Of a stretch of DNA of 64,000 nucleotides, positions 9,592 to 53,428 are shown piece after piece; position 1 is the first letter of the stretch; every line of letters begins with the position of its first letter. The position numbers and the translations under genes are program-made. Under the pieces are notes generated by a model. That model had not been told where the DNA came from, did no database searches, and worked only from the letters and a program-made list of their open reading frames with translations. This DNA is from Candidatus Limnocylindrales bacterium (lineage in GTDB: Bacteria > Verrucomicrobiota > Verrucomicrobiia > Limisphaerales > UBA11358): contig DATNHM010000064.1 of NCBI GenBank assembly GCA_035604955.1, forward strand, positions 42,362 through 106,361. The letters run 5' to 3'.

Positions 9592-11607
9592 ATGCGCAGA
9601 CCAGGATCGGAATCCAAGCACTCACCAGCGAGAGCACAAGCCTTGGGGACGGCTCCGCCGCGCTTTCCGGTGTGGCTGATGGCCGTCTTGCTGGGATTGA
9701 CGACCCTGGCCCTTTACTGGCCGGTGCTGCGCCATGAGTTTGTCAACTACGATGATCAGGCCTACGTCACCGAGAATCTTCAGGTCCAACAGGGGTTAAC
9801 CTGGGAAAACCTGAAATGGGCATTCGTTGCGCCTGTGATGGCCAATTGGCATCCGTTGACGATGGTGTCGCACATGCTGGACTGCCAGCTTTTCGGATTG
9901 AAGCCGTGGGGACACCACCTGACCAGCGTATTGCTGCACGCGCTCAACACGGTGCTGGTCTTCCTGTTTCTGCGCGGTCTGACCGGAGCGTTCTGGCGGA
10001 GCGCGCTGGTGGCGGCTTTGTTTGGGTGGCACCCGCTGCATGTGGAATCGGTGGCTTGGGTGGCGGAACGAAAGGATGTGTTAAGTGGCTGTTTTAGTCT
10101 GCTGGCGCTCATTTTTTACGGCCGGTACGCGCACAGGCGGTCGAGCGGCGAGTGCCAGGAGCCAATCGCAAAACCGGCACCAGGCCGCGCCCTTGGGCCG
10201 TTGATGCGGGACTACGGGCTGGCTCTGCTCTTCTTCGCGTTGGGTTTGATGAGCAAGCCGATGCTGGTGACGTGGCCATTCGTCCTGTTGTTGCTGGATT
10301 ACTGGCCGTTGAATCGAATGCGGAAATCAGAATTCGGAATTCGGAATTTCCAAAGGTTGTTGGTGGAAAAAGTTCCGTTTTTTACACTTTCCGCCGCGTC
10401 GTGCGTCGTCACCTATGCGGTGCAACGGCAGGCAGGCGCCATGACGGCGGGCGAACACCTGCCACTGGCTGCGCGCGGCGCGAACGCTTTGATTTCCTAC
10501 TGCCGCTACCTGGGGAAGCTGTGCTGTCCGACGGATCTGGCGGTGTTCTATCCGTATCGTGGGAATTGGCCGCTGGTGGAGGTGCTGCTGGCCGGCGGGT
10601 TGATCATGGGCCTTTCAGCGCTGCTTTTTGTGAAGAGACGGCGCTATCCATTTATGCCGATGGGGTGGCTGTGGTTTATCGGGACTTTGGTGCCGGTAAT
10701 TGGTTTGGTTCAGGTCGGCGGACAAGCGATGGCGGATCGGTACAGTTATCTTCCGTCAGTCGGACTTTTCATTCTGGTAATCTGGGGTGCGTATGAACTC
10801 ACCCTGCGTTGGCGGCATCAGGGTATGGCGTTGTCTGTGGCCGGTTCAGCGGCGCTCGTCGCATGCCTGGTGTTGACGCGGCAACAACTCGGCTATTGGA
10901 CGGACAGCGCAACGCTTTTTCGGCATGCACTCGCCGTCACGGAGAACAATTGGCTTGCCCACATCAAACTCGGCACCGCCCTCGTCAGGAAAGGCCAACT
11001 CGACGAGGCCGTCAGCCAATTTCAGGAAGCCCTCCGACTGAATCCGGACTACTTCGATGCGCTGGACAATCTGGGTTACGCTCTTGCCGCCAAGGGCAAG
11101 TTCGGTGAGGCTATCGAGGACTATCACATGGCCATCCAGATTGATTCAAACCGCCCCGAACCATTCCTTCATTTGGGCGTGGCACTTGGCCAACTGGGTC
11201 GCACCCGGGAAGCGGTTGTCCAATACCAGACGGCGCTGAGATTGAATCCCAACCTGGCGGGAGCGCTGAACAACCTGGCTTGGGCGCTGGCCACCAGTCC
11301 CGATGCGGTGCTTCGCAATGGGACCGAGGCGGTGCGTCTGGCTGAACACGCGTGTGAACTGACTCATGATAGCGAACCCTTGTTCGTTGGGACGTTGGCG
11401 GCGGCTTACGCCGAAGCTGGTCGTTTCCCCGAAGCGGTGGCCACAGCGGAAAAGGCGGAGCAACTCGCCACCGCCGCTGGTCAGTCGGCTGTGGCAGCGA
11501 AAAACCGGCAACTGCTCGGGCTTTACCAGGCCGGCAAACCTTATCATGAATCCTCGCCGGCAGCGTCATCATCTGTCCCAATGCCCTCACACAGCACGGA
11601 ACGGTGA
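9592..11607 (+). CDS. TMTC-like polytopic membrane protein with C-terminal TPR repeats (DUF1736-type putative glycosyltransferase)
   Basis: Multi-TM N-terminus with WHPLHVESVAWVAERKDVL motif; C-terminal TPRs (AHIKLGTALVRKGQLDEAVSQFQEALRLNPDY...). Confidence 0.75.
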   Translation: MRRPGSESKHSPARAQALGTAPPRFPVWLMAVLLGLTTLALYWPVLRHEFVNYDDQAYVTENLQVQQGLTWENLKWAFVAPVMANWHPLTMVSHMLDCQLFGLKPWGHHLTSVLLHALNTVLVFLFLRGLTGAFWRSALVAALFGWHPLHVESVAWVAERKDVLSGCFSLLALIFYGRYAHRRSSGECQEPIAKPAPGRALGPLMRDYGLALLFFALGLMSKPMLVTWPFVLLLLDYWPLNRMRKSEFGIRNFQRLLVEKVPFFTLSAASCVVTYAVQRQAGAMTAGEHLPLAARGANALISYCRYLGKLCCPTDLAVFYPYRGNWPLVEVLLAGGLIMGLSALLFVKRRRYPFMPMGWLWFIGTLVPVIGLVQVGGQAMADRYSYLPSVGLFILVIWGAYELTLRWRHQGMALSVAGSAALVACLVLTRQQLGYWTDSATLFRHALAVTENNWLAHIKLGTALVRKGQLDEAVSQFQEALRLNPDYFDALDNLGYALAAKGKFGEAIEDYHMAIQIDSNRPEPFLHLGVALGQLGRTREAVVQYQTALRLNPNLAGALNNLAWALATSPDAVLRNGTEAVRLAEHACELTHDSEPLFVGTLAAAYAEAGRFPEAVATAEKAEQLATAAGQSAVAAKNRQLLGLYQAGKPYHESSPAASSSVPMPSHSTER

Positions 11608-15271: not shown

Positions 15272-15280
15272 TCAAATTGG

Positions 15281-15455: not shown

Positions 15456-15458
15456 AGC

Positions 15459-17003: not shown

Positions 17004-17054
17004 TTTTTAACCGCAAAGAACGCATAGAACACAAAGCACTTCACCACCTCTTTT

Positions 17055-17465
17055 ATGAAAGACATGACATCGTTGAGCGACCAAATCCGGCAGACGGCGT
17101 ATGACATTCATGTTTACCATGGGCACGGTCATTTGGAGAAAGTGTATAAAAATGCGCTGGCGCATAGGCTACGGAAGGCCGGCTTGGACGTAAAGCAGCA
17201 GCATCCGCTCAAAGTGTTTGACGAGGATGGAACGCTGATTGGTGACTATCTGGCGGACCTGCTGGTGGAAGGAAAATTGATTATTGAATTGAAGACCGCC
17301 AAGGCGTTGGCTGCCGAACATGAAGCGCAAATCCTCGGCTACTTGAAATCGGCGCGCTTGGAGCACGGTTTGCTGATCAATTTCGGTTCTTACAAGTTTG
17401 AAATCCGCAAGTTCGCCTGGAATGAGAATCAATCGCGAAGAACGCAGAGAATCCCCGACTTTTAA
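17055..17465 (+). CDS. GxxExxY protein (PD-(D/E)XK-like family, often found with IVS-type cassettes)
   Basis: GHLEKVY fits GxxExxY; DLLVEGKLIIELK is a nuclease-like core. The gene is bounded by TTAACCGCAAAGARCGCA inverted repeats (17007..17037 / 17465..17497). Confidence 0.8.
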   Translation: MKDMTSLSDQIRQTAYDIHVYHGHGHLEKVYKNALAHRLRKAGLDVKQQHPLKVFDEDGTLIGDYLADLLVEGKLIIELKTAKALAAEHEAQILGYLKSARLEHGLLINFGSYKFEIRKFAWNENQSRRTQRIPDF

Positions 17466-17528
17466 TTCTCTGCGTTCTTTGCGCTCTTTGCGGTTAAATG
17501 AAGGGAAGCAATCGAGAATGATGAACGC

Positions 17529-19073: not shown

Positions 19074-19074
19074 G

Positions 19075-19187
19075 TAGGGCGGGCAATCCCTTGCACGCCG
19101 GTTGTGGTTGGATGATGGCGGCGCGCACGGAGTGACGCGCCCTACCGGGTTTACGGATCACGGCACGCGCGGAGCGGAGCGCCCTAC
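19075..19187. repeat. cluster of GTAGGGCG-headed REP-like palindromes
   Basis: gtagggcgggcaatcccttgcacgcc; ...gcgcacggagtgacgcgccctac; ...gcgcggagcggagcgccctac. Confidence 0.65.
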
Positions 19188-19214
19188 CGACAAATCGCGC
19201 GCCTGACTCCGAAT

Positions 19215-19889
19215 TCACGCCAGCCTGCGGCGGAACAACATGAGCGCCGCCAAACCCAAACCGCCCAAAGCCAGCGTAGTTGGCTCAGGAATTGAAAAGA
19301 ATGCGAATGGTTGCATAGTGGTCATAAAACCGGGAGGCTGAATTCCCGTGGCAAGCTCTGGTATTGTAAATGGAGCCGATTGCCCCCTCCACATCCCGGC
19401 ACCCTCGGACGCCGCATAGCTCGATCCATTGTAGGCCTCCACTATGAACGTGATCGGGCCTGACGTATAACTTGGAATTTCTACAGCGCCTCCAAAGAAA
19501 TATCCTGGAGCGATTCCCGACGAATACACGCTGCCCGCGCTGGGCAGCGGACCGTCAACCGTGCTGCTGAAGAAGCCGAATGGAACCGGGTACCCACCGA
19601 AGCCTGCGGTACTTGCACCGGAATTGGCTTGCGTAAGCAATGTATAGGAAAAGCCATTCAGTGAATACAGAAGGTCGGCGGTGAATTCGGAACCGACGCC
19701 AAAACCAGCTACAGTAGTCGTCCCACCATTTACCGCTTGTCCCGATGACCCGAACGTGACCGGGGCATAGAAGCGCTCAGCGCCGCTGGCGTAATTTTGG
19801 AAATAAATAGACCCTCCGGCATTCGATGTCGCCACCATGGCCAACAGGCCTGCCAATCCAAGTATTGATGCCAAGATTGCTCTTTTCAT
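19215..19889 (-). CDS. PEP-CTERM sorting-domain secreted protein (Gly/Tyr/Ser-rich), paralog of 24367..25038
   Basis: Signal peptide MKRAILASILGLAGLLAMVATSNA; C-terminus IPEPTTLALGGLGLAALMLFRRRLA. Shares YFQNY, FIVEAYNGS and WRGQSAPF with 24367..25038. Confidence 0.8.
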   Translation of the reverse strand: MKRAILASILGLAGLLAMVATSNAGGSIYFQNYASGAERFYAPVTFGSSGQAVNGGTTTVAGFGVGSEFTADLLYSLNGFSYTLLTQANSGASTAGFGGYPVPFGFFSSTVDGPLPSAGSVYSSGIAPGYFFGGAVEIPSYTSGPITFIVEAYNGSSYAASEGAGMWRGQSAPFTIPELATGIQPPGFMTTMQPFAFFSIPEPTTLALGGLGLAALMLFRRRLA

Positions 19890-20129
19890 ATTGATCCCCT
19901 TCCGTTTTGGTTGATTGGCGATGGGTAAAGACGGATCTTTTCTGAACACAATCATCCTATCTCATTTACTGTGATAATTCAATCACAAACCATAATTTAT
20001 CGAAAAGGCATGGAGGACTGGGCCGGCCGTCGTACCTGCCAGACGGACTTTGTAACCCGATACTCCGCCTGTGTTCGGCGTCAGTGTTGAAAGCACGGAA
20101 AATTGGAGCGCATCCTGACACCGTTCTGG

Positions 20130-20257
20130 GTAGGGACGGCGCGTTGCGCCGTCCGCGCCGCGTCCAGCGGCGCGAGGTCGTGGAAACCCTGGATTCCCAA
20201 GTATTCCTTTCCGCCCGCTACTTCGCGGGCGGGGCCGCCGCAGCGCAGCGGCCCTAC
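20130..20257. repeat. GTAGGG...CCCTAC bounded multi-hairpin REP-like element
   Basis: gtagggacggcgcgttgcgccgtcc ... ggggccgccgcagcgcagcggccctac. Confidence 0.65.
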
Positions 20258-20286
20258 CGGCTAAGGACAGTGTCAAGATGCACGCG

Positions 20287-20372
20287 AAAATTGCGATATG
20301 CGATTTACCATTTACGAAGCTTGTTTGATAATGAGGGCGCGCGTAAATCGCAGATCGTAAATCGAAAATAAC
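20287..20372. repeat. heptamer hairpin module (TTTACGA)n / (TCGTAAA)n abutting a start codon
   Basis: aaaattgcgatatgcgatttaccatttacgaag ... cgtaaatcgcagatcgtaaatcgaaaataac, then caac-ATG (20376). Confidence 0.7.
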
Positions 20373-20375
20373 AAC

Positions 20376-21920
20376 ATGAATCAACCGCAACAGGTTGCTC
20401 AAGGTGCCGTGGCCAGAATGGTCCAAATGGCGGACGCAGCCTGGGAACAGCGCCATTTCCAGCCATGTTTTGAGTTGATGGAGCAGGCCAGCCGTTTGGA
20501 CCCGGCCAATTTTGGGATCCTGCTAAACCTGGGCCAGCGTTATGGGTTGCGCTATGACTACGCCGCGGCTGAACGCTGCTTTGAACAAGCCGTGCGCGTG
20601 GCCAAAGATAAGACCCACGTGCTGACCGCAGCGGGCGAGTTGTCCGACTTTTTCGCCAACCCCAAACTGCCTGAGCAGTATTTTAAAAAGGCCATGGAGC
20701 AACAAGACGCGCCGGCCGGAACTTTCGCCAAAGCGGCGGAATTCTACGAACGTCTGCGGCGGATGGAAGAGGCCTCCACGTCGTTGGACCGCGCATTGCA
20801 ATTGGACCCCAAGTGCGGCCTGGCCTGGCTGGCTCGCGCCCGGCTGCTTCGCCACGCGGGAAACCTGGAGGAAGCCGAAATGGTCCTTCGTCCCATTCTA
20901 ACCACCGCGGAGCGGGAAGTGCGGATTCGCGGCTACTATGAACTGGGCGCCATTCTGGATCGGCAAGGACGTTACGATGAGGCCATGGCGGCCTTTCTGG
21001 AGGCCAAGAAGATATTGCTGGAGAATGCCCGGCCCATGATTGCCAATTTGCTGGCGGGCCGCGCCGTCATCAGACCACGGCGAGCCGACATCAAGGCCGA
21101 GGCCATGCAGGGCTGGTTTGACGCCAGAGCCGAACTCCAGCCATTCCACCGGTTGGCCCTTCTCGCGGGCCATGCGCGCTCGGGGACAACGCTGCTCGAA
21201 CAAGTCCTGGATTCGCACCCGGACATCATCTCAGCGGAGGAAACAGAGATTTTTATGGATGACGCGTTCCTGCCTCTCCGGGCCGGTCTTCCGCCAAATA
21301 TCACCATGTTCGGCGTTCTGAAACTGGCGCAGACCTCCGCCTTGAGACAATCCCGCGAACGCTATTTCCGCACGATGGAGCTGCACTTGAACCAACCCAT
21401 CGGCAACAGGCTGCTGCTTGACAAGAATCCCACGGTCACCTATCGCGTTGCGGCTTTTGCCCGGATTTTCCCGGAAGCAAAGATTCTACTCATGTTGCGG
21501 GATCCGCGGGACGTGGTGATGAGTTGCTTCATGCAACCCTACCTGCACATTGAGGTAACCGGCCTGTCTTATCTCACCCTCGATCTTACCGTTGACGATT
21601 ACACCTTCGTGATGGAGGCGTGGAAAGCCCACGGCCCTTTACTCAAAAACCCGTGCCTGGAAGTGCGCTACGAAGACACCGTGGCCGATTTGGAATCAGT
21701 CTCCCGGCGCGTGCTGGACTTTCTGGGCGTGTCCTGGGACGCCTCGGTGCTGAAATTTGACGAGCACGCGCGAACCAGGAAGGTGAAGTCGCCCACCTAC
21801 GCCGATGTGACCCAGCCGGTCTATAAGCGCGCCCAGGGCCGCTGGCGGAATTATGAGAAATATCTGAAGCCGTATCTGCCCAAATTGGAGCCGTTCGTGA
21901 AGGCGTTTGGGTATCAATAG
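20376..21920 (+). CDS. TPR-repeat sulfotransferase, paralog 4
   Basis: 514 aa; AGHARSGTTLLEQVLDSHPD (P to A in the PSB loop) and LRDPRDVVMSCF. Confidence 0.85.
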   Translation: MNQPQQVAQGAVARMVQMADAAWEQRHFQPCFELMEQASRLDPANFGILLNLGQRYGLRYDYAAAERCFEQAVRVAKDKTHVLTAAGELSDFFANPKLPEQYFKKAMEQQDAPAGTFAKAAEFYERLRRMEEASTSLDRALQLDPKCGLAWLARARLLRHAGNLEEAEMVLRPILTTAEREVRIRGYYELGAILDRQGRYDEAMAAFLEAKKILLENARPMIANLLAGRAVIRPRRADIKAEAMQGWFDARAELQPFHRLALLAGHARSGTTLLEQVLDSHPDIISAEETEIFMDDAFLPLRAGLPPNITMFGVLKLAQTSALRQSRERYFRTMELHLNQPIGNRLLLDKNPTVTYRVAAFARIFPEAKILLMLRDPRDVVMSCFMQPYLHIEVTGLSYLTLDLTVDDYTFVMEAWKAHGPLLKNPCLEVRYEDTVADLESVSRRVLDFLGVSWDASVLKFDEHARTRKVKSPTYADVTQPVYKRAQGRWRNYEKYLKPYLPKLEPFVKAFGYQ

Positions 21921-22030
21921 TTGGTTGAATGTTGAGGGTTGAGAGTTGAGGGTGACGGCTCGTCAGTAGCCTCGCCCCACCAATGGCCACAGCAGCATCA
22001 TTCCGGTGTGGCGAGCGTACTCGCGAGCCG
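21921..22030. repeat. (TTGAGGG/TTGAGAG) array plus a tail-to-tail REP-B pair
   Basis: ttggttgaatgttgagggttgagagttgagggtgacgg; CGGCTCGTCAGTAGCCTCGCCCCACC (21957..21982) ... GTGTGGCGAGCGTACTCGCGAGCCG (22007..22030). Confidence 0.7.
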
Positions 22031-22999: not shown

Positions 23000-23141
23000 T
23001 GGGACTCCTGGCGTCGTCCCCCACTATTTGGCAGTAGGCGCCGAGGTAACGAGGCGAGGACTCCTCACGTCGTCCCCTACTATCTTCAGTAGGCGCCGAG
23101 GTCACGAGGCCCTGGACTCCTTACGTCGTCCCCTACTTTCT

Positions 23142-24074
23142 TTACCGGGTTTTCCGCGAACTGCGGAACGGCAACTTTCGGTCGCCGGCCTCAGGCTGAC
23201 GTTGCCGCTGGTATAACTTCCAAAACTTCGGCCAGAAATCCTCCTGCCACGGATGCAACGTGGGATAGCCGGGAACAATGGCGCCACCATAGGGCCAATC
23301 AGTAGGAGCCGAGGTCACAAGGCTGGACTCCCCACGTCGTCCCCTACCATCTTCCGTAGGAGCCGAGGTCACGAGGCTGGACTCCTTACGTCGTCCCCTA
23401 CCATCTTCTGTAGGAGCCGAGGTCACGAGGCTGGACTCCCCACGTCGTCCCCTGCCATCTTCCGTAGGAGCCGAGGTCACGAGGCTGGACTCCTTACGTC
23501 GTCCCCTACTATCCCCTGCGGCGATCAATCCAGCCCGAACGGGATTGGCCAGGATGTAAAAACAGATCCTCGCAAAGGCATCGTGCTTCCTTTCCTCATC
23601 ACTCAAGACGTGGTCGTGCGCCTGCGGCTGAAATTTGTGCGGCGCCAAGCGCGGTTCCAGGTGCGTCCGTAAAAATGACATGGCGTTTCGCTGGTCCGTG
23701 TCGCACCGCAGTCCCAGCCACAGCAGATGAATGTGGTCGGGCATCAGACAGTAAGCCGGGCACAGCAACCCTTCCCGCGCGGCGGCGTGGAGCAACAGCT
23801 CACGGAATCCGCAGTGAAAGGCGGCATTCAACCAGCCGGTGGCCCGGTCAAATACCGTCAGGGTCCAGTGAACCGCGGCGTCGCCCCGATAAAATTCCGG
23901 GTCCAGGCGGGGAAGATGACCCGGATGTTTAGTAGGGGACGACGTAAGGAGTCCAGGCCTTGACGTGTCCAGTCTCTCCTCACGCCTCGTTACCTCGGCG
24001 CCTACTGGCCGCGGGGTACCAGTAGGGGACGACGTGAGGAGTCCGGGTCTGGGGATTTCCTGGTCCTCATTCAC
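23142..24074 (-). CDS. REP-associated tyrosine transposase (IS200/IS605-type Y1 HUH, RAYT-like), with REP-derived N-terminus and internal REP tract
   Basis: HUH motif in YCLMPDHIHLLW and catalytic-Tyr motif FYILANPVRAGL. About 48 N-terminal aa and 72 internal aa (4 x GRGRRKESSLVTSAPTED) are translations of REP-A; true start uncertain. Confidence 0.7.
   Translation of the reverse strand: MNEDQEIPRPGLLTSSPTGTPRPVGAEVTRREERLDTSRPGLLTSSPTKHPGHLPRLDPEFYRGDAAVHWTLTVFDRATGWLNAAFHCGFRELLLHAAAREGLLCPAYCLMPDHIHLLWLGLRCDTDQRNAMSFLRTHLEPRLAPHKFQPQAHDHVLSDEERKHDAFARICFYILANPVRAGLIAAGDSRGRRKESSLVTSAPTEDGRGRRGESSLVTSAPTEDGRGRRKESSLVTSAPTEDGRGRRGESSLVTSAPTDWPYGGAIVPGYPTLHPWQEDFWPKFWKLYQRQRQPEAGDRKLPFRSSRKTR
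23302..23509. repeat. four tandem REP-A units, 54-bp period, in frame within the RAYT CDS
   Basis: GTAGGAGCCGAGGTCACRAGGCTGGACTCCYYACGTCGTCCCCTRC + 8-bp linker; unit starts at 23302, 23356, 23410, 23464. Confidence 0.9.
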
Positions 24075-24300
24075 GAGGCCGATATAGCAGAGACTCGTTA
24101 CCTCGTCTCCTACTATTTTCAGTGGGAGCCGAGGTGACGAGGCTGGGACTCCTCACGTCGTCCCCTACTATTTTGGGAGGCAGTAGGCGCCGAGGTAACG
24201 AGACGGGGCAAGGGACTCCTTACGTCGTCCCCTACTATTTTCGGTAGGAGCCGAGGTAACGAGGCTCGGACTCCTTACGTCGTCCCCTACTGAGATAACG

Positions 24301-26207: not shown

Positions 26208-26318
26208 TTTCAAAGGCGGAAGCGGAGGGCTGAATTGAACCATTTTTAACGCGAAGACGCCAGGACGCAACGAGGTGAAGGAATGCGGGGAAGATGAGAA
26301 TCGGCAGTATCCTGATTT

Positions 26319-26363
26319 GTAGGCGACGAGGTAACGAGTCGCACTCCTTACGTCGTGCCCTAC
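26319..26363. repeat. solitary REP-A copy
   Basis: gtaggcgacgaggtaacgagtcgcactccttacgtcgtgccctac. Confidence 0.75.
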
Positions 26364-26428
26364 CTTCAAATCAGGACATTACCTTAGATTCGCTTGACGG
26401 GCCGTATTCGTCGTGGTGTATTAATGTT

Positions 26429-27325
26429 ATGAAATTGGGTGGATTGATATTAGCCCTTGGAACGCTCGCTTCAACGATTCTCCCGACGGAATCGGCGCGG
26501 TCGGCCACGATACGGGATGACGAGCCGGACAGCAGTTATCTGGCGCTGGCCGCCAGTCCGCAATACGCCCCGGTGGGGACGTTTGTCAACAGTTGGGGCT
26601 ATACCGGCTGCGCCACGCTGATTGCGCCGGATTGGGTGCTGACGGCCGCGCATGTTCTGACCGCCGCCACTTCCGGCACTTTCACCATTAACGGAATGTC
26701 CTACGGCTCGACCCAGCTCATCAGCAATCCGGGCTGGAATGGCACTGCGTTCAACGGTTACGATTTCGGACTGGTGCAACTGAGCACGCCGGTTTCGGGC
26801 ATTACGCCCGCAACGCTCTACACGGGGTCTGCGGATTTGGGAGAAGACCTGACCGGGACGTATGTTGGATTCGGTTTTACCGGAACGGGCCTGACGGGGT
26901 GGCAATCAGGCACCGCCGGTCAGATGCGCGCTTTTCAAAATGTCCTGGATGGAGACGTAGGCAATCCTTCGCTGGTGTTGTGCAGCGATTTTGACAATCC
27001 CGCCGGCACGGCGAACACGTTTGGCAGCGCGACGCCCTTGACGCTGGAAGGCTGCGTGGCGCCGGGCGACAGCGGCGGCGGCGTGTTTATCACGGTTGAC
27101 TCGCAAACGTATCTGGAAGGCGTGATCTCCTTTGTGGCCGCCACCCATGCCAGCGCCGGCAATGCGAATTCCGTTTACGGCGACGTCAGCGGGTCCGGGA
27201 GAGTCTCGGCATTGGTTCCCTGGATAGACAGCATCACCGGAATTCCTGAGCCAACGACATCGGCGCTGCTGGCCGGCGCGGGTCTCGCCATGCTTTTGGG
27301 CTGGCGACGACGGCCAATTCCCTGA
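26429..27325 (+). CDS. trypsin-like (S1) serine protease with PEP-CTERM anchor
   Basis: His motif LTAAHVL, Ser motif GDSGGGVF, signal peptide MKLGGLILALGTLAST, C-terminus IPEPTTSALLAGAGLAMLLGWRRRPIP. Confidence 0.8.
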   Translation: MKLGGLILALGTLASTILPTESARSATIRDDEPDSSYLALAASPQYAPVGTFVNSWGYTGCATLIAPDWVLTAAHVLTAATSGTFTINGMSYGSTQLISNPGWNGTAFNGYDFGLVQLSTPVSGITPATLYTGSADLGEDLTGTYVGFGFTGTGLTGWQSGTAGQMRAFQNVLDGDVGNPSLVLCSDFDNPAGTANTFGSATPLTLEGCVAPGDSGGGVFITVDSQTYLEGVISFVAATHASAGNANSVYGDVSGSGRVSALVPWIDSITGIPEPTTSALLAGAGLAMLLGWRRRPIP

Positions 27326-27486: not shown

Positions 27487-27709
27487 CCGCGTAAAAGGCT
27501 GGCGCCTCACGCGGCGGGCCCCGTAAAAGGCGGATGCCTCACGCGGCGGGGCCAACCACGGAATTCAACCACGGATGAACACAGATGAACACGGATGAAC
27601 GCGGATTTTTAGACACGAATTGCACGAATTTTCACGGATAAAGCCGCAAAGCGGCACAAAAGGCACAAGGGCGGAAAGAAAAAGGTTGAAGGCTGAAGGC
27701 GGTGAAGGG
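27487..27709. repeat. tandem 32-bp repeat followed by four concatenated short-period arrays
   Basis: ccSCGTAAAAGGCKGRYGCCTCACGCGGCGGG x2 (27487..27551); (ACGGATGA/ACAGATGA) array ending TTTTT; (CACGAATT)x2; (GCRGCACAAA)x3; (GGYTGAAGG)x3. Confidence 0.8.
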
Positions 27710-27774: not shown

Positions 27775-28101
27775 TCAAGCTGCCAAACCAAGCATACGGG
27801 CGCAAACGGTTTCAATCGCCACAAAGTTCTCTTTCGGAAAAGCGGCAATACGCCGAATGATTTTTGCGTTGTCCACCCCGGCGATGCCCAGCACATTCAC
27901 CACCGATTCCTGTTTGAGCCACGCGGGCTTGGGAAAGTGAACTTCACATTCCCCGCCACGAATCTCCGTGGTCATGGGAACCACGACGGACATGGCGCGT
28001 TCGGCATCGGGGCGGCGCACGGAAACAACCACACACGGTCTGATTTTGGCGGCCATACCCAAATCCACGATCACGACGTCGCCGCGATCAAATTTGGTCA
28101 T
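27775..28101 (-). CDS. mazF: PemK/MazF-family toxin
   Basis: MTKFDRGDVVIVDLG...IRPCVVVS...VVPMTTE is typical of MazF/PemK; 14-nt overlap with the upstream antitoxin. Confidence 0.75.
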   Translation of the reverse strand: MTKFDRGDVVIVDLGMAAKIRPCVVVSVRRPDAERAMSVVVPMTTEIRGGECEVHFPKPAWLKQESVVNVLGIAGVDNAKIIRRIAAFPKENFVAIETVCARMLGLAA

Positions 28102-28303
28102 AATCAATTTCGGGCGCGGGTCCGAGTTTGTTCCACGTATCGGCCACAATAGCTTCCCAGGCACGCGCCGGAGTTTTCACCCTGGGCGCGGGCATGACCC
28201 ACCAGCCGCCCTTTTGGGCGGTGACCAGGTATTGCTGTCCTTTCCGGGTACCGCGTATGGAAACCCGGCCCTTGTCGTCGGCTTTGACCAGCGTGGTTTG
28301 CAT
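28088..28303 (-). CDS. mazE: AbrB/MazE-type antitoxin
   Basis: MQTTLVKADDKGRVSIRGTRKGQQYLVTAQKGGWWVMP SpoVT/AbrB-like N-terminus; the ATG at 28303 lies inside ORF 28088..28489. Confidence 0.65.
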   Translation of the reverse strand: MQTTLVKADDKGRVSIRGTRKGQQYLVTAQKGGWWVMPAPRVKTPARAWEAIVADTWNKLGPAPEIDYDQI

Positions 28304-28406
28304 GTGGGAAAGTTCCCACGGCGCAGGGTGGGTGTCAAGCCAGAGAGCGGCGGGCCCCGTAAAAGGCGGGCGCCTCACGCGGTGGGCCCCGTAAATGGAC
28401 TGGTTT

Positions 28407-28534
28407 GGTGGGGCGAGGCTACTGACGAGCCGGGGTGAAGGGGAAAATCGGTTCAACAAAACGGCTCGCGAGGACGCTCGCCCCACCAAACCAAATCATC
28501 TCAACCGACGGCTCGCGAGGACGCTCGCCCCACC
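28407..28534. repeat. REP-B palindrome plus an extra half copy
   Basis: GGTGGGGCGAGGCTACTGACGAGCCG (28407..28432) ... CGGCTCGCGAGGACGCTCGCCCCACC (28462..28487) and again at 28509..28534. Confidence 0.8.
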
Positions 28535-28536
28535 CG

Positions 28537-29838
28537 TCAGCCATTACTCGCCTGCACCAAAATTTTAAGGGAATCCGAAGTTGGTTTGGCGGCCAAAGCC
28601 ACGGCTTCCGCGGTTTGTTCCAACGGAAAGCGATGCGTGATCAACCGGCGCACGTCGAGCCGGCGGGAAAAGACCAGACGCGCGACTTCGGACTGCAAAG
28701 TGAAATCCGACGAGTAGCTGCCGATGAGGTCTTTCTCGTCCAGACAAATTGACGCGAGGTCAATTGGGGAGATTGGGGATGGGAGTTGGGAGTTGGGAGG
28801 AATGGCCACCTCACCCGCATCAAATAATGTTTTCCCTTTAACCCTCACCCGACCTTTGGCCACCCTCTCCCGCTCCCGCGAGCGAGGGGTCTGGCTTTCT
28901 CCCCTGCCATCTGCCATCTGCCATCTGCCATCTGCTCTTTTGGTGTGAGCGAAAAGGAGGACCTGGCCGCCGCCGCGGACGAGGGCCAACGCCTGATGCA
29001 CGGCGGCATCGGAGGAAACGGCGATGATGGCGGCGTCCAAATTGGGAATTGTAGGAGACGAGGTGACGAGCCTCTTATTCATCCCAGGTTTTGGATTTCG
29101 GACTTCGAGTTTTTCAGTTAGAGCCTCGTCACCTCGGCTCCTACTGACATTAATCGTCCAGCGGGCGCCGAATTTTTTGGCGAGTTTCAACCTGGATTCG
29201 AGCAAATCGGTGGCGAGGACGCGCGCGCCGGCGAGTTGCAGCAAGCGCGTGAACATCAGGCCAATCGGCCCCTGCCCCGCCACCAACACAACGTCGCCGC
29301 GCAACAGGTTCAATCGCCGGACGGCCTTGAGCACGGTGTTGACGGGCTCCAACATCGCGCCTTCTTCAAAAGAGTTTTTCGCCGGGATTTTCACGACGCC
29401 GGGCAGGACGAAGGGCATGACGCAGACGTATTCGGCGTAGCCGCCGCCCGCCGGTTCGAAACCGGCGGTGATGCCGGTGCGTTTGTAGGTTTCGCATTGG
29501 GCAAAGGCGTGGTGCCGGCAATAATGGCAATCCAGGCAGGGCACGTGATGGTGGAGGGCGACGCGGTCGCCGACTTTGAGTGACGAGTGACGGGTGACGA
29601 GTGACGGGTTTCCGGCGCCGATCTGGACGATGGTGCCGGCGGTTTCGTGGCCGAAGATGCGCGGGGGCGGGACGGTGCCGTGCTGGATTTTTTTGATGTC
29701 GGTGGGGCAGACGCCGCAGACGGCGACCTTGACGAGCAGTTCATTCGGGCCGAGGCGCGGGACGGGGACGGTTTCGAGGCGCAGGTCGTTGACGCCGCGA
29801 TAAACGACGGCGCGCATGGTTTTGGGAATGGCGAACAC
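28537..29838 (-). CDS. zinc-dependent medium-chain alcohol/threonine dehydrogenase family protein carrying three in-frame repeat insertions
   Basis: GVCPTD, GHE, structural-Zn cluster CLDCHYCRHHAFAQC, Rossmann VAGQGPIG. It has extra segments relative to typical MDR dehydrogenases, encoded by repeats at 29578..29608, 29051..29144 and 28763..28935. Start at 29838 or 29817. Confidence 0.8.
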   Translation of the reverse strand: MFAIPKTMRAVVYRGVNDLRLETVPVPRLGPNELLVKVAVCGVCPTDIKKIQHGTVPPPRIFGHETAGTIVQIGAGNPSLVTRHSSLKVGDRVALHHHVPCLDCHYCRHHAFAQCETYKRTGITAGFEPAGGGYAEYVCVMPFVLPGVVKIPAKNSFEEGAMLEPVNTVLKAVRRLNLLRGDVVLVAGQGPIGLMFTRLLQLAGARVLATDLLESRLKLAKKFGARWTINVSRSRGDEALTEKLEVRNPKPGMNKRLVTSSPTIPNLDAAIIAVSSDAAVHQALALVRGGGQVLLFAHTKRADGRWQMADGRGESQTPRSRERERVAKGRVRVKGKTLFDAGEVAIPPNSQLPSPISPIDLASICLDEKDLIGSYSSDFTLQSEVARLVFSRRLDVRRLITHRFPLEQTAEAVALAAKPTSDSLKILVQASNG

Positions 29839-29850
29839 GGGGGAGTTTTA

Positions 29851-30104
29851 ACCGCGGATGACGCGGATGACACGGATTTTTTTGACGGAAAGACGACTAA
29901 CCGCAAAGAGGCAAAGACGCAGAGAACACTGGAAGATCAGGATTAAGAGTAAGATTAAGATTAAGATTTTTGGCGGAACCGTGAAAGACACGAAATTTTA
30001 GACACGGATTACACGGATAAACACGGATTTTTTGAAGGAGTCAGCAGTCAATAGTCAGTGGTCAGCAGCTTTTTACGCGTCACCTGTCACACGCCACATG
30101 TCAC
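29851..30104. repeat. field of six different short-period arrays, most ending in a T-run
   Basis: (CGGATGA) 29851..29883; (GCAAAGA/CGCAGAG) 29899..29934; (GATTAAG) 29938..29971; (ACACGGAT) 29985..30034; (GTCAGYA) 30040..30075; (CGYCACN) 30076..30104. Confidence 0.85.
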
Positions 30105-31922
30105 TCATTGGGGTGGCGGGGCCAAAAAGGTGTGGAGGCCGATCGGGAATTGGGGAGATTCCAACCAGTCGGCCAGAAGATTTAACTCGATACCGGTGAA
30201 ACCGATGGTGGATTTGCGGGTGAAGGACAGTTGATTGGGGCCGGTTTGGGTAATGACGGTGAGACTGGCGCCGAGCCTGGGAGCAATGTCTTTAAGCCAG
30301 AGCGTCGCCGGAGCACTGAATGGCAACTGGTCCTTATTGCAAACAAGGCGGGCAAACTGGCCCATGTAAAGCCATTGTTCGGTTCGCGGGCCGGTGATTT
30401 CCCAATCGTAATAGACCGCATTGGTCCGGTTCAAGACGGCTTGCAGCGATTGAAGCGACAGTGGCAGGGCAGGTGGTATTGGTTGGAACGCGCCGCCAAA
30501 AATGAAGCTCTGGCGGTTGATGTTCGTATAAAGCACGAATGGGTACATATATGGGACGCCCTTCCACTCCAAGCCGTTGAAGGCGGCAGATTTTTCGAAC
30601 TTTGAAAGACCGTTTGTCGGAAACCAGCGGTATTGCTTTCGCAAGACCAAATCGGTCAGCCTGGAAACCGTGTTGCTGGCTTCCGGGAGCGGCGTCGCGA
30701 AATAGCTGAGCATATTAAGCCCCGGCATCGCCCAAAAACAGATCTGATCCGGCGGCGGGCCGATTTGGAGATTAGTCCAGAATGGCGATGAGGCCAGCCA
30801 GGGCTGGAATCCCCGAATGGCAGTGAAACCGGACAGATGTTCATCAATCAGATTGGTGGGGATGTTCCACGGTTTCAGTTCGAGCGCCAGCGGCTCCGGA
30901 AAATCGACCGTGCCGTTCAACAAGACGTTGGTGACGTCACCGGTCGCGGACAGATGAAGGCGGTTGAGAGTGAAAATGTCTTTCGAACCCACCTCACCCC
31001 GGCCACTGGATTTGTTCTCATCCCCACCACCCTCAACCGCCCTGTGGGCACCTTCTCCCGCTCCCGCGAGCGAAGGAACTTCCCCCGCTGTACGGGCGGA
31101 GAGGGAGAAGACAGCGGCGAGTCGCGCCGGGTCGAGGTCGGCTTCGAGCCAGTCTCCCGGGTTCCGTACGTTCCAGGGCGGCAGGGCACGGTGCGTTCGG
31201 AGCCGCAGTTCGGCAATCAAACCATTGAAGTCTTCAGCCGCCCCCACGATGGTCCACGCGCCAATACGGGTCAGCTCAATGACGTTGGGGGAATGATGCT
31301 TTTTGAGCGACCAGCCGTATGAACCCTGAGGTGCCGGGACAGGCTGGAGGCTGGTCAATGATTCCAGGACCGCGGCGAGATTGGTCTGCCACAAGGCGGC
31401 GCGCTGGTCGTCCAGCCGGATGGCCAAGGCAAGCTCAGCCGGTTGATTGGCTACCTGACGAATTTCCAGATACGACTCACCGGCGACCAGATCGTCCAGC
31501 AACGGCCGCAAAAGAGCGGCGGCATTGGTGTCAAGGTTGCGATGCAGCAAAGGCCAGGGGGCGAGGGAAAGTTTGTCCAGGGTTTGTTGTTCGAGCCGCC
31601 GGCTTTCGGGCAGGTTCCAAATCGTCAGCAAAGAAGCCGCATTGGTCCCGCCGGAGAGCTGTTTCATTCCCGACCAGTGAACGCGGGCAACAATCGGCAT
31701 GGAAGCCGTCGGCGGCGTCTGGCCCGGAGGCGTGTTTTCGGCGGACTGGGCTGGCCGGGCGCCGGCCAGCAACATAACGGCGGCAAACAGGATGAATAGG
31801 TTTCCATTTTGCCCGGAAAATCGTTTGCCGTATAACGATTTTGCCGGATGCAAAAAGGCAACGCGTGGCATGTTCATTATCCGCTGTTTTATGCCAAAAC
31901 CAGGGGCCATCGGCAATTTCAA
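30105..31922 (-). CDS. hypothetical secreted protein (no recognised domain), contains one in-frame ~105-bp repeat element
   Basis: 605-aa ORF with a hydrophobic N-terminal segment LFILFAAVMLLAGARPAQS; start ambiguous among M1/M16/M18. Confidence 0.55.
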   Translation of the reverse strand: MKLPMAPGFGIKQRIMNMPRVAFLHPAKSLYGKRFSGQNGNLFILFAAVMLLAGARPAQSAENTPPGQTPPTASMPIVARVHWSGMKQLSGGTNAASLLTIWNLPESRRLEQQTLDKLSLAPWPLLHRNLDTNAAALLRPLLDDLVAGESYLEIRQVANQPAELALAIRLDDQRAALWQTNLAAVLESLTSLQPVPAPQGSYGWSLKKHHSPNVIELTRIGAWTIVGAAEDFNGLIAELRLRTHRALPPWNVRNPGDWLEADLDPARLAAVFSLSARTAGEVPSLAGAGEGAHRAVEGGGDENKSSGRGEVGSKDIFTLNRLHLSATGDVTNVLLNGTVDFPEPLALELKPWNIPTNLIDEHLSGFTAIRGFQPWLASSPFWTNLQIGPPPDQICFWAMPGLNMLSYFATPLPEASNTVSRLTDLVLRKQYRWFPTNGLSKFEKSAAFNGLEWKGVPYMYPFVLYTNINRQSFIFGGAFQPIPPALPLSLQSLQAVLNRTNAVYYDWEITGPRTEQWLYMGQFARLVCNKDQLPFSAPATLWLKDIAPRLGASLTVITQTGPNQLSFTRKSTIGFTGIELNLLADWLESPQFPIGLHTFLAPPPQ

Positions 31923-46112: not shown

Positions 46113-47084
46113 TCAATGTTGTGGCTTCACGCTGGGTCCGGCGAAGGTTTTCAAAAGCAATTGAGCAAAAATATTCACGAGCATGGTCACGCCGAGCAGG
46201 ACCAGCCCCAGTTCAAACAGCGAGCTGTAAAACAAATCACCGATGGCTTCGGTGAATTGATTGGCAATCCAACTGGCCAAGGTGCTGCCAGGCGCAAAAA
46301 GCGATTTGACGAATTGCGGCGAATTGCCGACGACCATCGTCACGGCCATCGTTTCGCCCAGCGCGCGGCCCAGCCCCAGAATGACCGCGCCGAACAGGCC
46401 CTTTTTCGCGTAGCTCAGCACGGCGATGCGTGTGACTTCCCAGCGCGTCGCGCCGAGGGCATAGGCGGCTTCGCGCTGCAAACCGGGAACCGAGCGCAGG
46501 ATTTCCCGCGAGACCGACGTGATGATGGGCACAGCCATGATGGCGAGGATGATTCCGGCAGCCAGCATGCACGGGCCGTAATCTGGCCCTTGAAAGAATG
46601 GCAGAAAGCCGAGCGTCGTCCGCAGCGCTGGATAAAGATGATTGTGCAGCCACGGAACCATGACAAAGAATCCCCAAAAGCCCAGAATGACGCTGGGAAT
46701 GGCGGCAAGCAATTCGATGAACATGATGAGCGGCTGGCGCATCCAGAGCGGCGCAAGTTCGGTGAGATAAACGGCGGTGGCGACGCTGATGGGCACGGCG
46801 ATGATGAGCGCAATGAGTGATGAGGCCAGCGTGCCGAGGATGAAGGGCAGCGCGCCATAGTTGTCGTTGCCCGGGTCCCAGTCGCTGCTGATGAGAAAGT
46901 GCCAGCCGAATTTGTGCAGCGCCGGCTGCGAACCGCGGGCCAGTTCGTAGCCGATGAGCGCGATGAGCACAAAAACGGACAGCGCCATGAGCAGCGTCAG
47001 CCATTTGAAGGCGCGGTCGCCGAAGTGGGAGCCGCCGCGCATTCGCGCGGAGGCGGTGGCTGCCATGACCGAAGATTCACTCAC
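46113..47084 (-). CDS. pstC: phosphate ABC transporter permease PstC
   Basis: 323 aa, six TM, EAA loop REAAYALGATRWEV. Confidence 0.85.
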   Translation of the reverse strand: MSESSVMAATASARMRGGSHFGDRAFKWLTLLMALSVFVLIALIGYELARGSQPALHKFGWHFLISSDWDPGNDNYGALPFILGTLASSLIALIIAVPISVATAVYLTELAPLWMRQPLIMFIELLAAIPSVILGFWGFFVMVPWLHNHLYPALRTTLGFLPFFQGPDYGPCMLAAGIILAIMAVPIITSVSREILRSVPGLQREAAYALGATRWEVTRIAVLSYAKKGLFGAVILGLGRALGETMAVTMVVGNSPQFVKSLFAPGSTLASWIANQFTEAIGDLFYSSLFELGLVLLGVTMLVNIFAQLLLKTFAGPSVKPQH

Positions 47085-51991: not shown

Positions 51992-53428
51992 TTACTCTAA
52001 AATCGCTGGGTCGCCGTAGAGCGTGAAGGAACCGGCACGGGTAATTTTTACGTCCATGAGCTGGCCGCGATGCCGTTCCGAGCCGTCGAATACCACAATC
52101 CGGTTACACCGCGTCCGGCCGGTCATTCGCGCCGGATTTTTTTTGCTCGGCCCTTCCACCAGAATCTGCAGCTGCCGCCCGACCAACGCGCTGTATCTGC
52201 ATTTGGCGATCTCGTTGATGATTTCCAGCAACCGCTGGTTGCGTTCCTCGCGTACTTTTTGCGGCACCTGGTCGGGCAACGCGGCGGCAGGGGTGTCGCG
52301 CCGCTGCGAGTATTTAAAAATGTACGCCTGGTCAAACTCCACTTCGCGCGCGAGTGAAAGCGTTTCCTTAAAATCGTCTTCGGTTTCACCGGGAAACCCG
52401 ACGATGAAGTCGGTGCTGACACCGATGTCCGGTTTGGCAGCACGCAGTTTCTCGACGATGCCGAGGTAACGTTCGCGCGTGTAACCGCGGTGCATCAATT
52501 TCAGCACGCGGTTGCTGCCGCTCTGGACGGGCAGATGCGCGCTTTCGACCAGTTTCGGCAGTCGCGTGTAAGCCTCGATTAAATCGTCGCCGTAACCCTT
52601 GGGATGCGGCGAGGTGAACCGGATGCGTTCCAGTCCCTCGATTGCGTGAACGGCTTCGAGGAGTTGAACAAATGGAGAAAGTGACGGGTGACGGGTGACG
52701 GGTGACGAGACACTCGCGTCACGCGTCACGCGCCACTCGTCACGTTTTTCGTGTTTCCCATAACTCGTCACAATCTGGCCAAGCAGGGTGATTTCCTTCA
52801 CGCCCTGCGCCACCAACTGGCGGCACTCGGACACGATGTCCGGAATGCTGCGGCTGCGTTCCCCGCCGCGCGTGTAAGGCACAATGCAAAACGTGCAGTA
52901 TTGATTGCAGCCCTGCATGATGCTGACAAACGCCGTCACCGGTAGCGGTGGTCTATGACCGTCGCCATCTCCCCCGCCATTCTTTGCGCCATTTCCGTAT
53001 AGCAGATGCTCGCGAATGGTCGCTTCGCTCCCCTGCTCTTCCGCCACGTCCACGATTTTTTCCGCGCGACCGGCCAGGATTTCGCCGAGGCAATCCGCCG
53101 CGCGATGAAATTTCTGCGTGCCGAGGACCAGATCCACGTCCGGCAACCGGTCAATGAGCTCCTGCCCGCGGCTTTGGGCCATGCACCCCATGAACCCGAG
53201 CACGACGTCGGGCCGGTCGCGGCGGACGTCCGCGGCCAGGTTTTCCATTTTCCGGAGGGCCTTTTGCTCGGCGAGGTCGCGCACGCTGCACGTGTTGAGC
53301 AGGATCACATCCGCCACAGTTTCGGACGGCGCGAGCGTGTAACCCTTGGCCACGAGTTGTGCGGCGACGGCTTCGCTGTCGCGCTCGTTCATCTGGCAAC
53401 CGTAGGTCTTGATGTAAACACTCGGCAT
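51992..53428 (-). CDS. miaB: tRNA-i6A37 methylthiotransferase MiaB, with an in-frame heptamer-hairpin insertion
   Basis: N-terminal YIKTYGCQMN, radical-SAM CNQYCTFCIVP, C-terminal TRAM domain. Insertion RVTRDASVSSPVTRHPSLS is encoded by 52681..52744. Confidence 0.9.
   Translation of the reverse strand: MPSVYIKTYGCQMNERDSEAVAAQLVAKGYTLAPSETVADVILLNTCSVRDLAEQKALRKMENLAADVRRDRPDVVLGFMGCMAQSRGQELIDRLPDVDLVLGTQKFHRAADCLGEILAGRAEKIVDVAEEQGSEATIREHLLYGNGAKNGGGDGDGHRPPLPVTAFVSIMQGCNQYCTFCIVPYTRGGERSRSIPDIVSECRQLVAQGVKEITLLGQIVTSYGKHEKRDEWRVTRDASVSSPVTRHPSLSPFVQLLEAVHAIEGLERIRFTSPHPKGYGDDLIEAYTRLPKLVESAHLPVQSGSNRVLKLMHRGYTRERYLGIVEKLRAAKPDIGVSTDFIVGFPGETEDDFKETLSLAREVEFDQAYIFKYSQRRDTPAAALPDQVPQKVREERNQRLLEIINEIAKCRYSALVGRQLQILVEGPSKKNPARMTGRTRCNRIVVFDGSERHRGQLMDVKITRAGSFTLYGDPAILE
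52681..52744. repeat. inverted heptamer arrays (GTGACGG)x4 / (CGTCACG)x3 inside miaB
   Basis: gtgacgggtgacgggtgacgggtgacgag-aca-ctcgcgtcacgcgtcacgcgccactcgtcac. Confidence 0.9.

Follow-up and report, generated by a model that had tools for sequence, protein, structure and literature searches.

Probable in-frame colonisation of three segments of a verrucomicrobial zinc-dependent dehydrogenase by non-coding repeats of its own genome

Introduction

How can a housekeeping enzyme carry DNA that resembles intergenic repeats and still be encoded by a single unbroken reading frame? This question is raised by a 64,000-nucleotide stretch of contig DATNHM010000064.1 (GenBank assembly GCA_035604955.1), which was analysed as a whole and is called the window throughout. 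It contains a gene for a zinc-dependent medium-chain dehydrogenase/reductase (MDR) with three repeat-like segments. A first-pass annotation, made from the letters of the sequence, had described these segments as in-frame insertions and had likened them to the palindromic elements of Rickettsia, i.e. to selfish DNA that is tolerated in coding sequence or has been selected to stay open. Here we compare the gene with its orthologs and with the repeats of the window. We consider it probable, at roughly 85%, that the gene belongs to a Limisphaerales/Pedosphaera-type verrucomicrobium (soil/freshwater) and codes for a functional Zn-dependent MDR dehydrogenase of the cytoplasm, and that three connecting segments of this protein were colonised by non-coding repeat families of the same genome, which are translated within the working enzyme. 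A structural model predicts that these segments lie in loops.

Results

Integrity of the dehydrogenase gene

The open reading frame (ORF) comprises 433 aa when it is read from a GTG codon at 29838 (Table 1). An internal ATG at 29817 opens the sequence MRAVVYRG and is residue 1 in the numbering used here; the GTG start is nevertheless plausible because the upstream peptide 'xFxIPKT' is often kept in orthologs. Pfam identified ADH domains only (ADH_N, 4.6e-24; ADH_zinc_N, 9.4e-12), and the closest solved relatives are a ketose reductase and sorbitol dehydrogenases (1e3j, 1.3e-38; 3qe3; 1pl6). The catalytic residues Cys37, His57 and Glu58 (Glu58/Glu152 region), the structural-zinc ligands Cys94/97/100/108, the motif G181-x-G183-x-x-G186 (GxGxxG) and the NAD-binding Asp204 are present and invariant or nearly so in the two alignments A1 and A2, which confirms the catalytic and structural motifs that the first-pass annotation had noted. 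Concerning the substrate class, every NCBIfam equivalog match was far under its cut-off (the top one being IolM with 142 vs 450 bits), and the JGI name 'L-iditol 2-dehydrogenase' is an automatic label.

A protein search returned thousands of relatives, of which the best 120 were examined. These share 67-81% identity with the window protein over the whole length (100% for the window's own cluster P0001), measure 363-458 aa and carry, where a taxon label is given, almost exclusively the labels Verrucomicrobiae or Verrucomicrobiota. Additionally, a scan of the genomes in GTDB gave 80 orthologous loci, nearly all from metagenome-assembled genomes (MAGs) of Verrucomicrobiota, Limisphaerales or Pedosphaera. 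From these 80 loci 72 ORFs were extracted, and the other eight were also found by tblastn to be single-frame and full-length. Verrucomicrobial genes of this type were also met in bins labelled Bifidobacteriaceae, Klebsiella, Chitinophaga, Methylomirabilota or Limnocylindrales, which are likely mis-binned or mislabelled MAGs; likely mislabelled are the bins of the loci L012, L025, L035, L038, L040, L050, L055, L057, L060, L070, L073 and L080. The label Limnocylindrales is also attached to HXR48649.1, which is identical to the window protein.

Since the assembly is of the metagenome type, repeats are a classic source of misassembly and several related bins have implausible labels, the whole pattern might be an artefact, namely an assembly chimera, a mis-called ORF or a decaying pseudogene. 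We regard this as very improbable. Catalogue entries from about five contigs of JGI and NCBI, including HXR48649.1, contain the identical 426/433-aa protein, and the frame is unbroken at 80/80 orthologous loci; together, these two observations rule out misassembly or a chimeric gene, and the reading frame of the window gene is, as annotated, free of stops and frameshifts throughout. Every catalytic and zinc ligand is present. Moreover, codon comparison with insert-bearing orthologs places the core of the window gene under purifying selection, with a dN/dS of 0.10-0.18 at a dS of 0.35-0.83.

Table 1. Coordinates of the dehydrogenase gene, its three variable sites and the related repeats in the window
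Feature	Position	Strand	Identified by
Zn-dependent MDR ORF, sorbitol/threonine-DH-like	28537..29838	-	ORF, Pfam, PDB homologs, AF2
Variable site 1, residues 68-82, AGNPSLVTRHSSLKV	29572..29616	-	ortholog comparison, model
Heptanucleotide array of site 1, YCGTCAC on coding strand, ~4 units	29578..29609	-	TRF
Variable site 2, residues 219-260, between Rossmann strands betaC and betaD	29038..29163	-	ortholog comparison
GTAG-tagged REP unit, arm 1 of tail-to-tail dimer (GTAG + GAGAC..10 nt..GCCTC)	29051..29075	+	inverted repeat
REP-dimer spacer, 44 nt, variable; degenerate heptamer-like tract GAAGTCC GAAATCC AAAACCT = EVRNPKP	29076..29119	-	sequence
GTAG-tagged REP unit, arm 2 (perfect GAGCC/GGCTC stem)	29120..29144	-	inverted repeat, REP-unit family
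Intergenic cluster of GTAG-REP family, 54-56-nt periodic arrays, BIME-like, 1.3 kb	23002..24291	.	TRF
Variable site 3, residues 293-356, 64 aa	28750..28941	-	ortholog comparison
Heptamer array CTGCCAT (CAGATGG on coding strand), x4.6, 100%; read ADGRWQMADGR	28904..28935	-	TRF
GC-rich dispersed element, ~80-104 nt, between two heptamer arrays; read GESQTPRSRERERVAKGRVRVKGKTLFDAGEV	28800..28903	-	ortholog comparison
Heptamer array GGGAGTT (AACTCCC-type on coding strand), x4.7; read PPNSQLPSPIS	28767..28799	-	TRF
Second GC-rich core copy inside neighbouring 605-aa gene (30105..31922 -)	31029..31076	-	blastn 87.5% over 48 nt
Intergenic repeat cluster directly downstream of the dehydrogenase gene, two copies of ACGGCTCGCGAGGACGCTCGCCCCACC	28401..28534	.	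direct + inverted repeats
AF2, AlphaFold2; BIME, bacterial interspersed mosaic element; REP, repetitive extragenic palindrome; TRF, Tandem Repeats Finder.

Three positions vary between orthologs

In an alignment of 32 relatives the internal gaps all fell at the same three places. We measured these three regions between fixed anchors in a MAFFT alignment of the orthologs. The segments of the window comprise 15/42/64 aa vs an ancestral length of 8/24/12 aa, and the latter was found exactly in 21/72 orthologs, which share 75-82% core identity with the window gene. In nearly all orthologs with more than ~82% core identity the regions are expanded, and their content varies from genome to genome and is mutually unalignable. 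A neighbour-joining tree of the core indicated that site 2 was invaded independently in several otherwise ancestral lineages and that the insert types are distributed in a patchy way within the derived clade. Because of the ancestral-length orthologs, the unalignable inserts and the independent invasions on the tree, the three segments are, judged by sequence comparison, derived and not native, and the three positions are recurrent hot spots. The comparison with orthologs thus speaks against a conserved native domain. True orthologs measure 339-447 aa, and according to the alignment this variation in length is driven by repeats. The three extra in-frame repeat segments of the first-pass annotation are therefore real; they are not clean insertions, however, but nested insertions and replacements of native sequence. 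Peptides encoded at the junctions of the segments are ADGRWQMADGR, LVTSSPTIPNLDAAIIAVSSDAAVHQALALVR and IGAGNPSLVTR.

A heptamer array at site 1

At site 1 the ancestral 8 aa (ARVRGFKV) correspond to 15 aa in the window, five residues being replaced by 12, and the net gain of 21 nt equals three repeat units or 7 aa (LVTRHSS). The annotated (GTGACGR)x4 array was recovered by TRF, either as 4.1 copies of GAGTGAC with a period of 7 or as 2.1 copies of the 14-mer GTGACGAGTGACGG at 100%. Arrays of the GTGACGR type account for 28 matches in the window vs 0.43 expected. At the loci L001 and L003 site 1 carries a perfect (CTCGTCA)x4 array. Since these arrays are perfect despite a dS of 0.35-0.83 from the window gene, concerted evolution or re-creation at the DNA level seems to be at work rather than passive decay or selection for the peptide.

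The peptide LVTRHSS recurs at site 1 and in the same frame in many related orthologs. Others contain GGASVLASR, KTQNSKLKIQN or LEIPSPIGWERVAAGRVRV at this position. The element behind GGASVLASR at site 1 of these orthologs is the repeat just downstream of the window gene (28461-28534), and further copies of the repeat of this downstream cluster are located at 8008, 15355, 15399, 21956, 22005 and 33256 of the window. Site 1 of L018 is identical to window positions 28508-28534 at 26/27 nt, though the dehydrogenase core of L018 is only 86% identical; by this measure the consensus of the 27-nt repeat is conserved far better than unique DNA.

A GTAG-tagged REP dimer at site 2

At site 2 an ancestral segment of 24 aa ('xxALRGDAxDLxxQVxxLTRGRGL') corresponds to 42 aa in the window. 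The inverted pair of arms that had been noted before was found again; each arm measures 25 nt, the arms are 92% complementary, and they are separated by 44 nt and not by a 46-nt loop as first described. The arm itself gave 3 matches in the window vs 0 expected. Its unit has the anatomy GTAG + GAGCC + 10 nt + GGCTC and occurs in 14 copies in the 64-kb window vs 0 in shuffles, 11/14 of them in the cluster at 23.0-24.3 kb, and the copies show co-varying (compensatory) stem variants (GCGCC/GGCG, GAGAC/GTCTC and GCGAC/GTCGC). Because a terminal GTAG, a short stem-loop, a multi-copy family and an inverted dimer with variable spacer are all found, site 2 of the window is by its sequence a tail-to-tail dimer of GTAG-tagged REP units. 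The cluster at 23002-24291 is, on the same grounds of sequence, the source family of the arms.

The REP dimer is also located at site 2 of L003, L005 and L006, with spacers ranging from ~10 nt up to the 44 nt of the window. In orthologs the spacer is read as SEIRNPKSE, and SRSRRxEAL...LVTSSPT recurs at site 2 in the same frame in many of them. As LVTRHSS and the REP dimer are both common to many related orthologs, they appear to be old or recurrent and not private to the genome of the window. Elsewhere, site 2 contains a REP hairpin, the heptamer-coded peptides QSPKSKVQS or LSTLNPQL, or a GC-rich sequence read as PSPAGAGEGG.... The REP dimer has replaced the native site-2 segment of 24 aa, which is presumably a helix, judged from the alignment of homologs and from the general MDR topology of homologous Rossmann folds.

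Two further observations concern the same repeat family. A 310-aa ORF that runs through the REP cluster (23142..24074, minus strand) has no Pfam match and is probably spurious. A single GTAG-REP unit (26319-26342) falls within the opening codons of a trypsin-like protease gene when this is read as its longest ORF (26294..27325, plus strand), and may precede the true start.

The predicted fold of the whole site-2 segment including the dimer has a free energy of -49 kcal/mol. Such a stable RNA hairpin, together with the position of the inserts exactly between conserved blocks, would also suit segments that are excised before or after translation in an intron-like or intein-like manner, leaving a mature enzyme of the ancestral type. 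In every ortholog, though, each insert has a length divisible by three and lacks stops, a restriction that would be needless if the inserts were cut out of the RNA. Rfam gave no intron or ribozyme match in the window or in the region 28300-30100: at the gathering threshold the whole window yielded a tRNA only, and in E-value mode the region 28300-30100 yielded only sub-threshold chance matches to models of eukaryotic microRNA and long non-coding RNA and of a Pseudomonas cis-regulatory RNA. With no valid Rfam match, the repeats are not explained by a known RNA family. Intein motifs are absent, the added 7-52 aa are too small, and Pfam gives ADH domains only. Excision is therefore a most improbable explanation.

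A nested composite and a GC-rich element at site 3

At site 3 the ancestral 12 aa (KRGAxxxxDLAS) grew to 64 aa in the window, i.e. ~52 aa were added. The composite described in the first-pass annotation, consisting of a TTGGGAG-type array, an element of ~105 bp and a CCATCTG array, was reproduced by two TRF arrays separated by 104 nt. Relatives differ in the individual parts. P0027 has kept both heptamer arrays while ~78 nt of the GC-rich element are absent; P0004 contains the GC-rich element (+9 nt) and exactly 21 nt (3 CAGATGG units) fewer; and the AACTCCC-type array is common to P0004, P0003 and P0027. By this comparison site 3 was built up by nesting, in three events or more. The same site contains repeats of SEVGSRK, ADGRWQM, LNPQPST and others in further orthologs.

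In other orthologs the core of the GC-rich element is found again, at site 1, 2 or 3, and in the window a second copy lies in the neighbouring gene, which is syntenic and of unknown function. This gene shows an insertion of 37 aa with the GC-rich core that is absent in 7/8 orthologs. At L009 the ortholog of this neighbouring gene carries a shorter insertion there. From the same DNA the neighbouring gene reads PSLAGAGEGAHRAVEG and the dehydrogenase gene reads PRSRERERVAKGRVRV, i.e. two different frames are used. The use of different frames for one element by two neighbouring genes shows that the DNA is the unit and that the peptide is incidental. Furthermore, since GTGACGR arrays, REP units and the GC-rich core recur across the window and the orthologs, the segments are made of the dispersed repeat material of this genome.

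Predicted structure of the three segments

For structure prediction with AF2 we used alignment A2 with 135 sequences, including 105 arthropod sorbitol dehydrogenases; the shallow, near-identical alignment A1 gave an unusable mean confidence (pLDDT, predicted local distance difference test) of 41. The resulting model has a pLDDT of 81 and a pTM (predicted template modelling score) of 0.82, and Foldseek aligned it to the MDR crystal structure 1e3j with a TMt of 0.83. Site 1 is modelled as an extended beta-hairpin (E72-74/E79-81) with a pLDDT >90. Site 2 is placed between betaC (E220-223) and betaD (E260-265), with a pLDDT <50 within 230-253 (230-242, 249-253). Site 3 follows betaE (E280-289), and residues 299-346 have a pLDDT <50. 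In the model the heptamer microsatellite at site 1 lengthens the hairpin loop of the catalytic domain by 7 aa, and sites 2 and 3 are probably disordered surface loops of the Rossmann domain. The suggestion that the segments fall in surface loops was thus borne out for sites 2 and 3, which lie in low-confidence loops, and has to be modified for site 1 with its extended hairpin.

This hairpin, and the in-frame recurrence of LVTRHSS and of SRSRRxEAL...LVTSSPT in many orthologs, could be taken as signs of lineage-specific functional loops that were selected for their peptide (for oligomerisation, localisation or regulation) and are merely repeat-like. We consider selection for the peptide unlikely. 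The content of the sites is unalignable between orthologs with ~90% identical cores, the DNA of the segments is identical or near-identical to intergenic repeats, and the frame in which one element is read differs from gene to gene. In addition, the arrays are perfect at synonymous positions at the dS quoted above, which points to conservation at the DNA level, and the confidence at sites 2 and 3 is below 50.

Heptamer arrays within and around the dehydrogenase genes

Among the tandem repeats of the window (73 arrays) the modal period is 7 (28+5), as it is among the ~507 arrays of the related loci, which include 157 of period 7 and 24 of period 14. The units in the window include GTGACGR, CTGCCAT, GGGAGTT, GAATTCG, GGTTGAG and others, and 50 distinct units were counted in the 59 ortholog arrays. 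Most arrays of the window are intergenic. Period-7 arrays occur 59 times inside the 72 dehydrogenase genes and 92 times in the flanks. Because the density within the genes (~0.7/kb) exceeds that of the flanks (~0.24/kb), the three sites are, by these counts, strongly enriched sinks for arrays. The heptamer density of the flanks and the insert load of the dehydrogenase gene were only modestly correlated, with a Spearman coefficient of 0.35 (p 0.002), measured in 6-kb flanks, which are short for a strong test.

On the coding strand the units of 57/59 in-gene arrays are stop-free in all three frames, and on the opposite strand this number is 29/59. The corresponding values for flanking arrays are 73/92 and 60/92, which roughly agrees with the fraction of ~0.72 estimated for random heptamers, (61/64)^7. 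The excess of stop-free units on the coding strand matches the survivorship filter that is expected for translated repeats. Of the proposal that the repeats were selected to stay open, only this trivial filter is retained, i.e. broken alleles are not seen.

A unit of 7 nt is not a multiple of three and four to five pure units are prone to slippage, so that gain or loss of one unit would shift the frame. The arrays could therefore be contingency (phase-variation) switches that turn the enzyme OFF and ON in subpopulations, and the arrays do appear to be maintained pure; the whole 21-nt steps between relatives would be expected with transient ±1-unit alleles. Among the 80 loci, the ~120 orthologous proteins and the members of the window's cluster, however, 0 frameshifted alleles were found. 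The hosts are housekeeping cytoplasmic enzymes (the dehydrogenase and MiaB) and not surface or restriction genes, the prevailing location of the window arrays is intergenic, and the REP and GC-rich elements that share these sites lack any switching logic. Phase variation is therefore quite unlikely.

In-frame arrays were also detected in other genes of the window. The MiaB gene (51992..53428, minus strand) contains 3.9 units of GTGACGG and 4.3 units of CGCGTCA at 52681-52744, read as ...RVTRDASVSSPVTRHPSLSP..., and the loop encoded by these arrays is ~17 aa longer than in the solved MiaB from Bacteroides (7mjv). An ORF for a membrane glycosyltransferase-like/TPR protein (9592..11607, plus strand) contains 4.7 units of GAATTCG at 10312-10348, read as RKSEFGIRNFQ. 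As far as the sequence of the window can tell, in-gene repeats are thus a genome-wide property that affects the dehydrogenase, MiaB, the glycosyltransferase/TPR protein and the neighbouring gene. The spacer at 46010-46110 between a pstC-like gene (46113..47084, minus strand) and a pstA-like gene (start at ~46008) consists of nearly nothing but heptamers (CGAGTGA, 4.9 units; ATCGTAA, 4.3 units).

Further features of the window concern its paralogs and toxin genes. The region 13472-21920 harbours four tandem TPR + sulfotransferase paralogs, three of which comprise exactly 514 aa (15459-17003, 17529-19073 and 20376-21920), and copies of a GGGGCGAGCGTCCTCGCGAGCC-type repeat lie between them at 15355-15426 and 21956-22030. 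A MazF/PemK toxin gene (27775..28164, minus strand) immediately downstream of the dehydrogenase gene is flanked by a 32-nt repeat, CGTAAAAGGCGGACGCCTCACGCGGCGGGCCC, at 27490-27550 and 28347-28398. A weak match to a PemK toxin follows the dehydrogenase gene at L082, and at L083 other toxin-antitoxin genes (ParE toxin, PIN) flank it.

Discussion

Proposed course of colonisation

The findings are consistent with the following course of events. REP units would spread by single-strand transposition of the type mediated by REP-associated tyrosine transposases (RAYT), replication slippage or gene conversion would create the heptamer arrays and keep them pure, and the GC-rich element would spread as well. 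Most insertions into genes would be lethal or would shift the frame and be purged. The survivors would be those that measure a multiple of 3 nt, are stop-free in frame and lie in structurally permissive loops. Once colonised, such a loop could remain a sink for further insertion and turnover of repeats, which would produce hypervariable hot spots at the same three places throughout the order.

Several points weigh against this explanation. Only three loops were ever used, which is not an obvious outcome of a model that combines nothing but random insertion with a filter. At site 1 some protein-level constraint or co-option of LVTRHSS may exist, as many orthologs conserve this peptide and the model assigns it high confidence. 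In addition, the enzyme would have to tolerate the loss of the betaC-betaD helix and a loop of 52 aa close to the subunit interface. Furthermore, tblastn of the window with an E. coli RAYT sequence revealed no RAYT gene. An ORF at L074 (94-750) resembles RAYT and matched NF047646 with an E-value of 7e-20; its 71 bits are under the curated cut-off of 80 bits, and Pfam gave no match for it. Weaker RAYT-like matches were found at L002 (4516-4893) and L016 (4602-4907). All three ORFs lie within 3 kb of the dehydrogenase ortholog, which speaks indirectly for RAYT-type spread; no REP units of the window's family flank them.

The use of just three loops would fit a permissive structure as well as a process in which repeats attract repeats, and the nesting at sites 2 and 3 speaks for the latter as a partial cause. 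Colonised loops might attract more repeats (REP into REP, array into array, gene conversion) and be purified by concerted evolution much faster than synonymous drift; this extension of the colonisation model is tentative, and we hold it to be possible rather than probable.

Relation to known repeat systems

REPs are divided into two superfamilies by their tag, GTAG or CGTC, and those with GTAG are found in the PVC superphylum; intragenic GTAG REPs, presumed to be mobilised by RAYT, are most numerous in the verrucomicrobium Opitutus terrae (Di Nocera et al. 2013, PMC3733652). The elements of the window resemble them in the terminal GTAG, the short stem-loop, the inverted dimers with variable spacers and the intergenic clusters. 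In O. terrae in-frame dimers likewise encode ~20-30 aa inside genes of known proteins, and in Xanthomonas the recB genes of related species contain different REPs at roughly one position (PMC3733652). In contrast, the peptides of the window (SRSRGDEAL/RLVTSSPT) differ from those of O. terrae (VAGVADPG.., VGPALAAG), a heptamer tract lies in the spacer of the window dimer, and this dimer has taken the place of a native segment that is a helix as judged by homology.

The Rickettsia palindromic elements (RPE) are presented, in the passages of PMC10969869 and PMC3733652 that refer to Ogata et al. 2000, as selfish palindromes that lie in frame in unrelated housekeeping genes, are translated and are argued to sit where the fold tolerates them. 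According to the same passages of PMC10969869, classical RPEs measure ~150 bp and are Rickettsia-specific; the small units of RPE-4/-6 are CGTC-tagged and have no dedicated transposase (PMC3733652). Site 2 of the window shares with them a palindromic repeat that is inserted in frame in a protein gene, and differs in being accompanied by microsatellites and a third class of element. Membership of an RPE family was considered and rejected, as the tag is GTAG and not CGTC, the host belongs to the Verrucomicrobiota and Rfam gave no match. By analogy, the element works like an RPE and is not one; from the earlier proposal of RPE-type selfish DNA, the tolerated selfish repeat survives and the family assignment does not.

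Heptanucleotide simple sequence repeats are over-represented in bacteria according to Mrazek et al. 2007, as this work is cited in PMC4679880 and PMC4692102, and the heptamers of cyanobacteria, Xanthomonas and Beggiatoaceae are mostly intergenic and sometimes intragenic (PMC4679880, PMC4692102). Common features are the dominance of period 7, head-to-tail arrays of ~4 units, the mostly intergenic location and the restriction of translation to the stop-free orientation. However, the units described there (TAACTGA, GGGAATC and GGGGAYT; PMC4679880, PMC4692102) are not those of the window, whose lineage has many unit sequences and not one dominant heptamer. Arrays of the window type furthermore lie in conserved enzymes, change in 21-nt steps, use the same loops across the order and are nested with REPs. 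Miniature inverted-repeat transposable elements (MITE), ERIC and BOX are small non-autonomous repeats that are able to fuse in frame with host ORFs (review PMC10969869); the elements of the window are much shorter, and neither terminal inverted repeats nor target-site duplications were identified in them. Our literature search yielded nothing specific on heptamer repeats of Verrucomicrobia, and no paper on the Limisphaerales case, on the co-occupation of fixed hot spots by three repeat classes or on the replacement of a native helix.

Significance

The principle that selfish repeats are tolerated in frame is already known; what stands out is that hot spots recur, that repeats are nested and that in-gene heptamer arrays evolve in concert across an order. 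For the literature on RPEs and intragenic REPs the dehydrogenase would add a phylogenetically resolved case with three repeat classes at three sites of one enzyme, in which the ancestral state is known, repeats were gained step by step and in a nested manner, and a native element of secondary structure appears to be replaced. The case also illustrates the birth of disordered segments from non-coding DNA. The ortholog series can be regarded as a natural experiment on MDR loops that tolerate insertions of 7-60 aa, which may be useful for protein engineering. In practical terms, low-complexity stretches in conserved enzymes of Limisphaerales MAGs would have to be taken as real and not as assembly errors. 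The perfect in-gene heptamer arrays in these divergent genes point to an active homogenising process at the DNA level. If repeats indeed attract repeats, the housekeeping enzymes of the whole verrucomicrobial order would carry self-perpetuating hypervariable cassettes, and the lineage would possess a natural form of loop-insertion mutagenesis with a continual supply of new disordered segments.

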